Position numbers and translations under genes: made by a program
Source of the DNA: a bacterium
GTDB lineage: Bacteria > Patescibacteriota > Minisyncoccia > Phycocordibacterales > UBA2100
DNA: 64,000 nt
Assembly (NCBI GenBank): GCA_016789445.1
Contig: JAEUQT010000003.1
Location: 82,600 to 146,599 of the forward strand
Direction of reading: 5' to 3'
Notes under the pieces: generated by a model
Told to the model about the DNA's origin: nothing
Databases searched by the model: none
Seen by the model: the letters and a program-made list of their open reading frames with translations, nothing else
Shown: positions 4,407 to 62,948 of the stretch, one piece after another
Layout: each line of letters opens with the position of its first letter
How positions within the stretch are numbered: the first letter of the stretch is position 1

Positions 4407-4443
4407 AAAAGACGCGCCCGCAGCAGTGCTGCGGGCGTTTCTC
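4405..4443. terminator. bidirectional intrinsic terminator (gcgcccgcagcagtgctgcgggcg flanked by A and T tracts)
   Basis: GC-rich hairpin between convergent genes. Confidence 0.5.
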
Positions 4444-16759: not shown

Positions 16760-17185
16760 CTACTCGGCCGCTACGCAGTCGGCGTAGGTGATGCTCTCAC
16801 CCTCCTGCAGATACGCGTCGTTACCCTTGCCGCGGAATTCGATGGTCTCCGAACTGTTGGTGTAGCGGATGCCGCTGCCGGAGATGGCCTGATTGAGCGT
16901 GAGTTGTCGGCCGTCGGAGAGCGTGAGATCGACGAGGTCGCGTACGAAGACCGCGGTCATCGTCTTGCCGCCGCTGCAGGTGAAGGTCGCCAAGGCCTCT
17001 TCGCCGCCATGCGCGCTTACCTCGCTGCTCTCCGGTGGCGGGGATTCCTCATGGCCGCGTTGCTGCTGCGGTTTCGGCGGAAGCGCGTCGTTGTGCGCGG
17101 TCTCGATATTGAGCGACGTGTAGTACCACAGACTGCCCGAGAGGATGACGATGGCTGCAGCGATGAGTGCGTACATCTTATTCAT
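16760..17185 (-). CDS. MliC-family protein (membrane-bound lysozyme-inhibitor-like); start reassigned to MNKMYAL
   Basis: Signal/anchor segment, SGSGIRY motif, Cys pair spacing typical of MliC. Confidence 0.65.
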   Translation of the reverse strand: MNKMYALIAAAIVILSGSLWYYTSLNIETAHNDALPPKPQQQRGHEESPPPESSEVSAHGGEEALATFTCSGGKTMTAVFVRDLVDLTLSDGRQLTLNQAISGSGIRYTNSSETIEFRGKGNDAYLQEGESITYADCVAAE

Positions 17186-17192
17186 ACCGGAA

Positions 17193-18272
17193 TTATACCC
17201 CTTCCCGCTTGATGAGCATGCGTACCGCGACGGCCGTCGTGATAGGGACCGCAAGGACCAATCCGATGGATCCGACGAGGATACGGACGATTTCCGTCGC
17301 AAACATCTCGCGGTTGATGGTGAGACCGAGGTTGAGATCGCCCGTCTGGTAGAAAAGAAGGAGGAGCGGGAGGCCCGCGCCGAGATAGGCGATCGCAAGC
17401 GTGTTTACGAGTGCGCCGACATGCTCGCGGCCGATGCGGATGGCTCGCTGGTAGATCTCCTTGCGGGAAAGGTCCTTGCCGGCACGGCCGAGTTCTTCCA
17501 CGGCGACTGCCTGACCGATCGCTCCGTCGTAGAGGACGCCAAGGAGTCCGATAAGGATTCCTCCCAAGAGAAGACCGGCGAGATCGATGGCGCCGCGCGC
17601 ATTCAGGTTGAGATAGGTCACCTCTTCGCCGCTCCAGCCTTCGAGATGCGTGAGATAGATCGCTGCGTACGCAAGCAGGCCGGTGAGAATGATGGTGAAG
17701 ATCATGCCGACGACCGCCGCAGACGTCATCCTATTGAAGCCGTGGGTCACGTAGGAGCCGAGCGTGACGATGATCGCGGCGACGCCGATGGAGACGAGGA
17801 TCGGCGAATAGCCGTTGAGGATGCCCGGCAGAAGGAATGCGCCGATGAATACGAGGCTGCCGATGAGGGCAAGAAGACCGCGCGCGCCTTGTTTGCCGCC
17901 GAAAACCAGCGTGACGACGATAAAGAGGATGAGAAGCCCGAGCAGTGCGGGCGTGCGATCGCGCTCGAGGACCGAATAATAGTCGGTGCCGTCGTACGCG
18001 CTGGTCGTGTGGTTGAGGAAAAAGACATCTCCTTCTTCGAGCTCGAGATAATCATTCTCGATGATAACCTCTTTGCCCTCTTCGGGTGCTTCGAGGATGA
18101 CGGCACGGATAGTCTGATGCTTCGCCGTGAGATCCATGCCGGGGATCTGACGGATTTCCTCGGTAACGACCTGGATCACCTCCGCTTTCATCGTTACGAC
18201 GGTGTCAGCGACGAGTTCTTGGGCGCCAGCGAGACTCGGGATGAGAAGGATGGTGAAGAGAAGTGCTTTCAT
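17193..18272 (-). CDS. YibE/F family membrane protein
   Basis: Signal peptide, extracytoplasmic domain, then multi-TM YibE/F-like region. Confidence 0.8.
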   Translation of the reverse strand: MKALLFTILLIPSLAGAQELVADTVVTMKAEVIQVVTEEIRQIPGMDLTAKHQTIRAVILEAPEEGKEVIIENDYLELEEGDVFFLNHTTSAYDGTDYYSVLERDRTPALLGLLILFIVVTLVFGGKQGARGLLALIGSLVFIGAFLLPGILNGYSPILVSIGVAAIIVTLGSYVTHGFNRMTSAAVVGMIFTIILTGLLAYAAIYLTHLEGWSGEEVTYLNLNARGAIDLAGLLLGGILIGLLGVLYDGAIGQAVAVEELGRAGKDLSRKEIYQRAIRIGREHVGALVNTLAIAYLGAGLPLLLLFYQTGDLNLGLTINREMFATEIVRILVGSIGLVLAVPITTAVAVRMLIKREGV

Positions 18273-18287
18273 GGATTCAGTATAGCC

Positions 18288-18686
18288 CTAGGCGCAGGAG
18301 CGGCATATACCGAAGAATTCGAGCGCATGATCGTTGATGCGCGAGAATCGCGATGAGGCATGGAGCGCTTGATGCTCGAGTGGAGAATTCCTGCACCCTT
18401 CCAGCTCCTCGATGAGACCGCAGCTCGTGCAGACGATGTGGTGATGATGGCCGTGAGAGAGCTCGAAGCGCACCGCGGTGTCCTTGAAGCGCACTTCGTG
18501 GACGATACCCGCCTTCACGAGCGATTGGAGATTGCGGTAGATCGTGACCAGATCGGCATCGGCTTTCGCGTGCAATTCTTCCGCGGTCTGCGGACCTCTT
18601 GCCTTGCCGAGCGCATGCAGAAGCGCGAGGCGCTGGGGCGTCGCGCGCAGTCCTGCACCTCGCAATATGATGGCGTGATCCGACAT
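18288..18686 (-). CDS. Fur-family transcriptional regulator (Zur/PerR-like)
   Basis: N-terminal wHTH (TPQRLALLH), HHHH cluster, CxxC pairs. Confidence 0.85.
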   Translation of the reverse strand: MSDHAIILRGAGLRATPQRLALLHALGKARGPQTAEELHAKADADLVTIYRNLQSLVKAGIVHEVRFKDTAVRFELSHGHHHHIVCTSCGLIEELEGCRNSPLEHQALHASSRFSRINDHALEFFGICRSCA

Positions 18687-18703
18687 ATCCCCAGTATACT
18701 ACA

Positions 18704-18718
18704 TGCAAATGATTTGCA
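18704..18718. promoter_or_regulatory. perfect 7-1-7 palindrome TGCAAAT-G-ATTTGCA in the divergent Fur-family/ZIP intergenic region; candidate Zur/Fur-box operator
   Basis: Read from the sequence; sits between the regulator start and the ZIP transporter start. Confidence 0.5.
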
Positions 18719-18732
18719 AATAGCTAAAAGGC

Positions 18733-19575
18733 GTGTATGCTGCCCGCATGAGCATCACTTTCATATCATTTGCCGCCGCGTTCGCGGTCATGCTGATCTC
18801 GTTATCGGGCGTGCTGTTTGCCGCGGGCCCCTTGCATCGTTTCGCACAGCGACGCCTCCCCTATCTCGCATCGTTCGCGGGCGGTGTCTTCCTTATCGTC
18901 GTCTATCACCTCTTGGAGGAATCGCTGCATGAGGGATCTGTCGCGGTTGCGGCGGGCGCCATACTCTTCGGTGCGGCATTGATGGAAGCACTGCATCACA
19001 TCCTGCCGGATTCGCACCATCACCACGGCGTCGATCATGGGCACGCGTATACCTCCATCGATGGACGACGCGTACTGCTCTCTGATGCCTTACACAATGT
19101 CGGTGACGGCGTACTCATCGTCGCATCGTTTGCGGCGGACTTCCGTGTCGGTATCGCCGCGACGATCGGCATCCTCATCCACGAATTCGTGCAGGAGATC
19201 TCCGAGTTCTTCGTCTTGAAAGAGGCAGGATATTCGACTCGGGATGCTTTGCTGCGGAATTTCCTCGCGTCTTCGACCATCCTCATCGGCGTTGTTATCG
19301 CGCTCTACTTGGCTTCTGCTGCGGAAATAGCGCTCCTTTTCGCCGGACTTGCCGCAGGTGGATTCCTTGCAGTCATCCTTCGCGACATCATCCCACACAC
19401 CATCTCCTCGATACGTACCCGCGGCGGTGGCATCGTGCATCTTTTTGCGGTCGTGGCAGGTATCGCACTTATGGTGGGCGTGCAGATCGCGCTCCCGCAT
19501 CAGGAACACGAGGAGTCGGGCCTTGAAGACGTGGGCGCTACGACTGCGGTTCGAACTCCAGACACACTGAGTTGA
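18733..19575 (+). CDS. ZIP-family metal (zinc) transporter, ZupT-like
   Basis: HNVGDG and HEFVQE metal-binding motifs, His-rich loop, 8 TM; track start is GTG, an alternative ATG lies at 18748. Confidence 0.85.
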   Translation: MYAARMSITFISFAAAFAVMLISLSGVLFAAGPLHRFAQRRLPYLASFAGGVFLIVVYHLLEESLHEGSVAVAAGAILFGAALMEALHHILPDSHHHHGVDHGHAYTSIDGRRVLLSDALHNVGDGVLIVASFAADFRVGIAATIGILIHEFVQEISEFFVLKEAGYSTRDALLRNFLASSTILIGVVIALYLASAAEIALLFAGLAAGGFLAVILRDIIPHTISSIRTRGGGIVHLFAVVAGIALMVGVQIALPHQEHEESGLEDVGATTAVRTPDTLS

Positions 19576-19927
19576 TGCAATGACGCTTGCCCGTCTGCGT
19601 AGGACCGTCGTTGAAGACGTGGCCTAAGTGAGACTTGCACTTCGCGCAGACGACTTCGGTGCGGTGCATCCCATGCGAGGAATCCTCGACGAATTCGACG
19701 GCGCCCGGAAGCGCCTCATCGAAGGACGGCCAGCCGGTGCCGGAATCGAATTTCTTCGACGATTCGAAGAGCTGGTTGCCGCAGGCGGCGCATCTGAACA
19801 TCCCTTCGCGCTTCTCATTGAGGAGTTTCCCCGTGAACGGAGCTTCGGTCCCCTTTTCGCGCAGCACCGCGTATTGCTCAGGGGTGAGCTTCTGCTTGAA
19901 ATCCTCTTCGGTGGGCTGCGTATCCAT
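19538..19927 (-). CDS. msrB: peptide-methionine (R)-S-oxide reductase MsrB
   Basis: SelR domain with two CxxC pairs and the GWPSF...RTEVxC...HLGHVF core. Confidence 0.9.
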   Translation of the reverse strand: MDTQPTEEDFKQKLTPEQYAVLREKGTEAPFTGKLLNEKREGMFRCAACGNQLFESSKKFDSGTGWPSFDEALPGAVEFVEDSSHGMHRTEVVCAKCKSHLGHVFNDGPTQTGKRHCINSVCLEFEPQS

Positions 19928-55058: not shown

Positions 55059-55180
55059 GGAGAGAATATAGCACGTCGAAGGTGCTTTACAAAGTACAGT
55101 AAATGACGCCGAACGCGATATACACTTTACATTGTAAAGCATACGCGCATACTTACCTTCTATCACTAACCCTACGCACC

Positions 55181-62786: not shown

Positions 62787-62948
62787 CTAGTCTTCGTCCC
62801 TCCGCCGACGCTGTTGGCTGGCGTGATGTACGGCATAGCCGTCATCATCGTCATCTGAACGGACCTTGATGCACGGTAGCATCACCGGCTCATCCATTCC
62901 CTGTTGCATCTGCGGTGCCGAAAGATCAGACTTCCCTTCATGCTGCAT
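62787..62948 (-). CDS. small acidic protein (53 aa), MQHEGKSDLSAPQMQQGMDEPVMLPCIKVRSDDDDDGYAVHHASQQRRRRDED
   Basis: Strong gggagga RBS 6 nt upstream; minus-strand hairpin plus T-tract at about 62733-62761; below the track cutoff. Confidence 0.3.
   Translation of the reverse strand: MQHEGKSDLSAPQMQQGMDEPVMLPCIKVRSDDDDDGYAVHHASQQRRRRDED

Follow-up and report, generated by a model that had tools for sequence, protein, structure and literature searches.

The stretch of DNA analysed here (the window) comprises 64 kb of contig JAEUQT010000003.1 from an uncultured Parcubacteria bacterium of the Candidate Phyla Radiation (CPR), a placement with which the names given to homologous proteins (Parcubacteria/Patescibacteria) agree. 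It encodes a Fur-family metalloregulator and, divergently from it, a ZIP-family metal importer, and the short region between the two genes contains a perfect 7-1-7 inverted repeat, TGCAAATGATTTGCA, at positions 18704-18718. A preliminary description of the window had placed the repeat between these two genes, and both the sequence and Pfam matches to FUR and Zip bear this out. We propose that the adjacent regulator binds the palindrome as its operator and is of the zinc-responsive (Zur) type.

The Regulator, the Importer and the Palindrome

The regulator scored 71.7 bits against PF01475 (FUR; cut-off 23.1, E = 7.5e-20) and is thus a member of the Fur superfamily. It contains an HHHH run and two CxxC motifs, as had been described. 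Its AlphaFold model has a mean pLDDT (predicted local distance difference test score) of 87.7, and the 50 PDB matches that Foldseek listed for this model were all Fur, PerR, Zur or Mur structures. Residues C86, C89, C128 and C131, which make up the putative structural Cys4 site, are invariant among 43 homologues. The same holds for E75, H80-H83, C98, H120 and E123, and for the counterparts of known DNA-contacting residues, namely T48, Y50, R51 and, in the L1 loop, T16 and R19. The importer carries a His-rich loop, HHILPDSHHHHGVDHGH. It had been called ZupT-like, but it scored 27.9 bits against the NCBIfam ZupT equivalog, for which the cut-off is 252. By its sequence it is a ZIP-family member and the ZupT orthology label is too specific.

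The exact sequence of the palindrome occurs once in the 64-kb window. Allowing up to three mismatches gave four matches where 2.4 were expected, which is noise. A position weight matrix built from related sites gave the box 30.7 bits, compared with 5.0 for the next-best position in the window and about 7 in shuffled sequence. In this matrix the centre of the box is informative, as positions 6, 7, 9 and 10 prefer A, T, A and T. Symmetry of this kind is common by chance: the window has eight perfect 7-1-7 palindromes versus 4.1 +/- 2.2 in mononucleotide shuffles (about twofold), so the significance of the box must rest on context and conservation. The other seven lie at 4419, 28639, 37096, 51044, 55125, 59433 and 62937, and none of them resembles the box (for example CTTTACATTGTAAAG at 55125 and TTCATGCTGCATGAA at 62937). 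A terminator or riboswitch reading was dropped, as a 7-bp stem with a 1-nt loop cannot form a hairpin; a search of 18200-19200 against Rfam gave no match. A second palindrome, ATTTGCAAAT at 18712-18721, overlaps the box and creates a direct repeat of TGCAAAT with an 11-bp period. An overlapping second 7-1-7 site starting at 18715 was considered and rejected: its right half (GCTAAAA) is mismatched, and a single dimer site is therefore assumed.

Predicted Divergent Promoters

The divergent arrangement agrees with the preliminary description, which gave the intergenic region as 46 bp. That length applies if the ZIP gene starts at GTG 18733; it is 61 bp if the gene starts at ATG 18748. Most public contigs call the ZIP protein as 275 aa from the ATG, and these calls together with the conserved promoter geometry favour the ATG. 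The centre of the box (18711) lies 25 bp upstream of the regulator ATG and 37 bp upstream of this ZIP ATG.

We infer both promoters, and with them the transcription starts, from the sequence. A consensus scan of 18200-19700 gave one sigma-70-like match, the minus-strand promoter of the regulator operon. The ZIP promoter was found by eye and was not called by the scan. The box overlaps both predicted -35 elements: it covers four bases of the regulator -35 hexamer and most of the spacer that follows, and its right arm contains the -35 hexamer of the ZIP promoter. The two -35 hexamers overlap each other within ATTTGCAAAT, the palindrome formed by this right arm together with the adjoining bases. 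Overlap with the -35 element is often seen for Zur boxes (PMC6103462). The regulator -10 hexamer ends 6 nt before its ATG and the -10-like hexamer of the ZIP gene likewise ends 6 nt before ATG 18748. This leaves no room for a ribosome-binding site, so both genes are apparently leaderless.

Conservation of the Box in Close Relatives

Orthologous loci in Parcubacteria were collected through exact-protein look-ups and encode regulators that are 60-100% identical to that of the window. The box is present in all of them with very few changes (variants include TGCAAATGAGTTGCA and CGCAAATGATTTGCA). In the relative L173 both arms have changed, and the resulting box, TGCAAGTCACTTGCA, is again a perfect palindrome. 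Where the regulators are at least 74% identical, the gene order is kept as well, with 61-63 bp between the ZIP gene on one side and regulator, YibE/F, MliC and lysS on the other. An alignment of seven of these intergenic regions has three conserved blocks. These are the box, the sequence TGTAGTATACTGGGGATATG that runs into the regulator ATG (invariant in six of the seven), and on the ZIP side an invariant TAnnnT hexamer followed by GCC-nnn-ATG. Between this hexamer and the box lie 15 variable bases.

In L174 and in L176/L089, where the regulators are 60-66% identical, inserted genes part the ZIP gene from the regulator. Both inserts contain a hypothetical gene and a gene for a CbiA-like ATPase; that of L174 also has MerC and a small gene, that of L176 a gene with a SWIB domain. 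The displaced ZIP gene retains a box of its own in each, which in L174 lies 37 bp from the ATG as in the window and is accompanied by the same -10-like hexamer. The upstream region of the regulator contains two boxes about 40 bp apart, and no other site with up to two mismatches was found in these loci of 8-16 kb. Each of the separated genes thus keeps a box, and the element follows both genes independently, as is expected of an operator.

The Box in Distant Homologues and the Genes Behind It

Scans of genomes and metagenomes yielded, among the matches listed, 160 loci whose regulators are 33-60% identical to that of the window. Their records are labelled Paceibacteria, Saccharibacteria, Nomurabacteria, Levyibacteria, Verrucomicrobia, Clostridia, Bacteriovoracaceae and others; several titles ("uncultured Gammaproteobacteria", "Bifidobacteriaceae") stem from automatically labelled assemblies and may misstate the taxon. 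The closest relative of the regulator among the matches listed was 47% identical in species-representative genomes and 60% identical in metagenomes, and raw-read assemblies (Logan) contain many at 60-100%.

The core TGCAA-N5-TTGCA occurs exactly 82 times in the 1.175 Mb of these loci, versus 1.05 expected from base composition (about 80-fold), and 76 of the 160 loci have at least one exact copy. It lies within 250 bp upstream of the regulator in 44 loci, or in 72 if one mismatch is allowed. In records labelled Verrucomicrobia, most boxes are 0.8-3.9 kb away from the regulator, on its upstream side, and immediately precede a ZnuA or ZIP gene. If every gene that starts within 160 bp of an exact box is paired with it, the pairs involve the regulator itself (59), ZIP (29), the ZnuA family (17), a CbiA/MinD-like ATPase (10), YibE/F (7) and a COG0523 CobW GTPase divergent from a ZIP gene (1). 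Another group of 18 open reading frames behind boxes was discarded, as the sequences look like antisense reading frames of loci with a high guanine and cytosine content. For 16 of the 17 ZnuA proteins the motif around the third metal ligand was readable, and in 15 of these it has the His form (xHxAFxYF); most of the proteins also have His-rich loops. A His as third ligand and His-rich loops are marks of the zinc-specific members of the ZnuA family. The combination of ZIP, ZnuA and COG0523 genes is the typical content of a Zur regulon (PMC6103462).

Alternatively, the palindrome might be a promoter element made up of overlapping -35 hexamers, or a chance arrangement, with no repressor bound to it. 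TTGCAA and TTTGCA indeed resemble the -35 consensus TTGACA, both predicted -35 hexamers fall in the right arm, and with eight perfect 7-1-7 palindromes in the window and about four expected, such symmetry is not rare. However, the left arm (18704-18710) is conserved as well, although it falls in the spacer of the regulator promoter, where no promoter constraint is expected, and the change on both arms in L173 kept the symmetry. Across phyla the distance between box and start codon ranges from 7 to more than 100 bp, and yet the box is always near genes of this Fur subfamily or of zinc uptake. The roughly 80-fold enrichment of the core, and the binding of the same sequence in vitro by other Fur-family proteins (PMC4506495, PMC8457756), also speak against a promoter element or chance. 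We therefore regard this explanation as very improbable. An operator that serves both divergent transcripts, as had been predicted, is strongly supported by the conservation of the box between orthologues, by its duplication where the genes have separated and by its enrichment.

Comparison with Known Fur-Family Operators

The half-site had been described as different from the classical Fur-box hexamers and as a possible lineage-specific Zur box. The lineage-specific reading is not supported, as the same consensus is found in homologues from records labelled Patescibacteria, Verrucomicrobia, Clostridia and others and the sequence is already known from other systems. The box is thus a known Fur-family recognition sequence. 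Firstly, DNA affinity purification sequencing (DAP-seq) of Fur_1691 (Clo1313_1691) from Clostridium thermocellum gave the pseudo-palindrome TGCAAATcATTTGCA upstream of a zinc ATP-binding cassette (ABC) transporter operon, clo1313_1690-1688, whose locus numbers adjoin that of the regulator. Further clostridia have similar sites, and the protein is interpreted by the authors as a zinc regulator (PMC8457756). This motif is identical to the box in the window when read on the regulator's strand, and it is by the DNA motif only that the two regulators are likened. The targets differ, an ABC transporter in C. thermocellum and a ZIP importer in the Parcubacteria bacterium. Clostridial homologue loci have a layout like that of C. 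thermocellum: in L081 a ZnuA gene, followed by two genes with features of an ABC-transporter ATPase and permease, which we read as ZnuC and ZnuB, is divergent from the regulator, with TGCTAATGATTTGCA in between. A search seeded with the L081 homologue gave no named C. thermocellum protein among the 120 matches listed.

Secondly, the Fur protein of Magnetospirillum gryphiswaldense (MgFur) was crystallized in its Mn2+-loaded form, with one dimer per site, on the DNA TTAATTGCAAATCATTTGCAATTGC (PDB 4RB2/4RB3), which is a symmetrised feoAB1 operator engineered from the native TTAATCGCAACTCATTCGCAATTGC (PMC4506495). The engineered DNA contains the exact 15-mer of the window. In the complex Arg57 forms a hydrogen bond to the G of TGCAA, Tyr56 is packed against thymines, and contacts to the backbone and the minor groove are made by the L1 loop (PMC4506495). 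Tyr56, Arg57, Thr17 and Arg20 correspond to Y50, R51, T16 and R19, which are invariant in the family of the window regulator. The two proteins are otherwise only about 22% identical in a structural alignment, and the ligand His33 of MgFur is Pro32 here. Furthermore, MgFur regulates the iron transporter feoAB1 and was studied with Mn2+.

Zur boxes of streptomycetes are similar to those of mycobacteria. The mycobacterial boxes have the core TGAAAATNATTTTCA (PMC4298942). They share the 7-1-7 layout and the A/T-rich flanks with the box in the window and differ by one base per half-site, TGAAAAT versus TGCAAAT (A versus C at position 3), so that the half-site is not lineage-specific either. Zur proteins control zinc uptake genes and COG0523, as is seen for the targets behind the boxes here. 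The actinobacterial proteins, however, have an Asp/Cys/His/His site, as known from the ScZur and MtZur structures, of which the Asp and the Cys are missing in the family of the window regulator.

The box could also be read as a Nur box and the regulator as a Nur-like nickel sensor. The Nur box of Streptomyces coelicolor, tTGCaa-N5-ttGCAA, has a 6-5-6 layout with a non-conserved centre (PMC2691836), and its TGCAA and TTGCA arms have the same spacing as those of the window box, so that the core TGCAA-N5-TTGCA is contained in it. In the window box, however, the five central positions are constrained, which makes it 7-1-7-like with a partly conserved centre. The genes behind the boxes are related to zinc and include no nickel transporter and no sodN. 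The regulator is also not close to Nur, as its match to the Nur structure 3eyy (1.6e-7) is more distant than those to PerR, Fur or Zur. A nickel sensor thus seems extremely unlikely.

Which Metal Is Sensed

The boxes are located at promoters of zinc acquisition genes, namely ZIP in the window and ZIP, ZnuA and COG0523 in relatives. The zinc role that the preliminary description had suggested is supported by the presence of ZIP, zinc-type ZnuA and COG0523 genes behind boxes across phyla. Recurrence at znu genes, which it had also raised, is seen in related genomes, and the window itself contains no znu gene and no second site. We estimate a probability of about 0.75 that the adjacent Fur-family regulator uses the palindrome as its operator and responds to zinc. 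NCBIfam, a PDB sequence search and Foldseek were tried for assigning a subtype; all three place the regulator in the Fur family and none of them picks a subtype.

Several observations weigh against this assignment. With regard to the operator, neither the exact pattern, nor up to three mismatches, nor the position weight matrix revealed a second site above noise in the 64-kb window, and the overlapping -35 hexamers, instead of an operator, could account for some of the conservation. With regard to the metal, zinc is read as the effector from the target genes only, and the ZIP and ZnuA families also include Fe and Mn transporters. The canonical sensing ligands of Zur, known from the M. tuberculosis and S. 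coelicolor structures, are Asp/Cys/His/His. In the window regulator H81 and H83 are present, the Cys position is taken by the invariant Glu75, and the Asp position (63 in the alignment to ScZur, 3mwm) varies between R, H, S, K and N. The putative site Glu75/His81/His83/Glu94 looks more like a Fur/PerR site. The regulator scored 31.3 bits against NF008646 (E. coli-type Zur; cut-off 167), and searches by sequence and by fold put it at equal distances from PerR, Fur and Zur. Finally, identical DNA is bound by a Fur protein that was studied with Mn2+ and regulates feoAB1, so the box does not specify the metal.

These points would fit a regulator that uses the same operator as a sensor of iron or manganese (Fur/Mur-type), with the ZIP protein importing Fe2+ or Mn2+. 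Indeed, the ligands are Fur-like (E75, H81 and H83 invariant, E/D94 in 40 of 43) and those typical of Zur, Cys and Asp, are missing. PerR and Fur rank first among the PDB sequences matched by the regulator, and ZIP/ZupT proteins can carry Fe, Mn and Co. The symmetrised feoAB1 operator that is bound by Mn2+-loaded Magnetospirillum Fur contains the identical 15-mer. However, the genes behind boxes point to another metal: the ZnuA proteins have His-rich loops and a His as third ligand in 15 of 16, a COG0523 GTPase is among the targets, and feo, mntH and siderophore genes are absent, with a single Ferric_reduct-domain protein in L103. In addition, the window ZIP has a His-rich loop, and the ligand position H33 of Fur and H37 of PerR is taken by an invariant Pro32 in this family. 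The protein with the same motif in C. thermocellum was read as a zinc regulator by its authors (PMC8457756). Iron or manganese sensing is therefore unlikely. None of the NCBIfam equivalogs for Fur, PerR and Irr reached its cut-off for the regulator.

The zinc-responsive regulator that we favour would sense its metal without the canonical Asp and Cys ligands. A fifth cysteine besides the Cys4 site, C98 in the motif ELEGC, is invariant in 43 of 43 homologues. The alignment puts it at the place of an acidic ligand of the second site in other family members, and it may contribute to that site. Cys98 and Glu75 together suggest a non-canonical arrangement of the sensing sites.

Proposed Mechanism

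We infer that one dimer binds per site and that binding represses rather than activates. A single metal-loaded dimer would sit on the 15-bp inverted repeat, where, by analogy with the Magnetospirillum Fur-DNA complex, Arg51 of each recognition helix would read the G of TGCAA and Tyr50 would contact thymines. The centre of the box would be at about -25 of the regulator promoter, covering most of the -35 element and the spacer, and at about -37 of the ZIP promoter, on the -35 element. As this shared site overlaps both promoters, which are back to back within 61 bp, one bound dimer would occlude both of them and block RNA polymerase. When the metal is replete, the ZIP importer and the operon of regulator and YibE/F, possibly with MliC, would be repressed. 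When it is scarce, the regulator would dissociate from the DNA, which would allow expression of both units.

Neighbouring Genes and Candidate Regulon Members

The YibE/F gene that follows the regulator is probably co-transcribed with it and hence under the same operator. The MliC gene may be part of this transcript as well, which is uncertain; between 18288 and 15281 no terminator-like site was found on the minus strand. On the other side, the ZIP gene (plus strand) and a convergent msrB gene (SelR domain, 19538-19927, minus strand) share 38 bp at their 3' ends (19538-19575), and this overlap is kept in the close relatives L001, L169, L170 and L172. A tblastn search of the window for a further Fur gene and for ZnuA, COG0523 and CbiA-like genes found none.

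Table 1. Positions of the palindrome, the predicted promoters and the genes discussed. Positions refer to the window unless a locus is named.
Feature	Position	Strand	Length	Remarks
Predicted operator	18704-18718	.	15 bp	Perfect 7-1-7 palindrome TGCAAATGATTTGCA; family-wide core TGCAA-N5-TTGCA with A/T-rich flanks (aaW...Wtt)
Predicted promoter of the regulator operon	18693-18720	-		-35 TTTGCA (18720-18715), 16-nt spacer, -10 TATACT (18698-18693)
Predicted promoter of the ZIP gene	18713-18741	+		-35 TTTGCA (18713-18718, right arm of the box), 17-nt spacer, -10 TATGCT (18736-18741)
Fur-family metalloregulator	18288-18686	-	132 aa	Pfam FUR 7.5e-20; putatively Zur-type; presumed autoregulated
ZIP-family metal importer	18748-19575	+	275 aa	Pfam Zip 1.4e-19; start ATG 18748, alternative GTG 18733
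YibE/F-like membrane protein	17193-18272	-	359 aa	Pfam YibE_F 1.4e-65 (PF07907); starts 15 nt past the regulator stop
MliC-domain protein	16760-17176	-		Pfam MliC 7e-12; 16 nt after YibE/F; lysS next
CbiA/MinD-like ATPase	L174 6808-7934; L176 7234-7920			Also in L024, L039, L102 and L110

We know of no established function for YibE/F (PF07907), and a literature search on it gave only unrelated matches. Of 170 loci, 47 contain YibE/F: in 27 it is the next gene after the regulator on that strand, and in seven the two genes are divergent. In six distant loci (L023, L028, L050, L113, L119 and L162) an exact box lies between the divergent regulator and YibE/F. The YibE/F-like protein is thus a candidate zinc-homeostasis membrane protein. 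The CbiA/MinD-like protein is a P-loop ATPase of 228-328 aa and is encoded divergently from the regulator behind one or two boxes. In L174 it adjoins MerC (PF03203). The two of these ATPases that were inspected have a Cys-x-His motif in common (RCSHS and RCYHS). The protein could be a Zur-controlled metallochaperone-like nucleoside triphosphatase distinct from COG0523.

A wider reading, which we put forward as tentative, is that these regulators form a distinct and widespread Zur clade, present in records labelled Patescibacteria, Verrucomicrobia, Clostridia and others, that lacks the Asp and Cys ligands and has YibE/F and the CbiA/MinD-like ATPase in its regulon. Zinc would then be sensed by Glu75/His81/His83/Glu94 together with a His80/His82/Cys98/His120 site. 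If this is true, YibE/F would be a new zinc transporter or a zinc-sparing membrane factor, and the CbiA/MinD-like ATPase, which is often beside MerC, a metallochaperone analogous to COG0523.

Implications

The palindrome is thus well supported as an operator, most probably of a Zur-type regulator. Such an operator is of an ordinary kind, with a consensus already reported in other phyla, and the understanding of how Fur-family operators work is unchanged. Modestly new are the assignment of such an operator in a CPR bacterium, the regulator subfamily without the canonical Zur ligands, the compact and apparently leaderless divergent promoter pair with one site, and the association of the box with YibE/F and the CbiA-like ATPase. 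CPR bacteria cannot be grown alone and, to our knowledge, transcription factor sites have rarely been defined in them; here comparative data by themselves allowed an operator to be assigned with good confidence. The finding indicates that reduced CPR genomes keep a conventional zinc-uptake switch, with a DNA motif that is common to Clostridia and Verrucomicrobia. This motif, aaWTGCAAATNATTTGCAWtt, lends itself to the prediction of zinc regulons in metagenome-assembled genomes, and it flags YibE/F-like proteins and the CbiA-like ATPase as candidate zinc-homeostasis genes.

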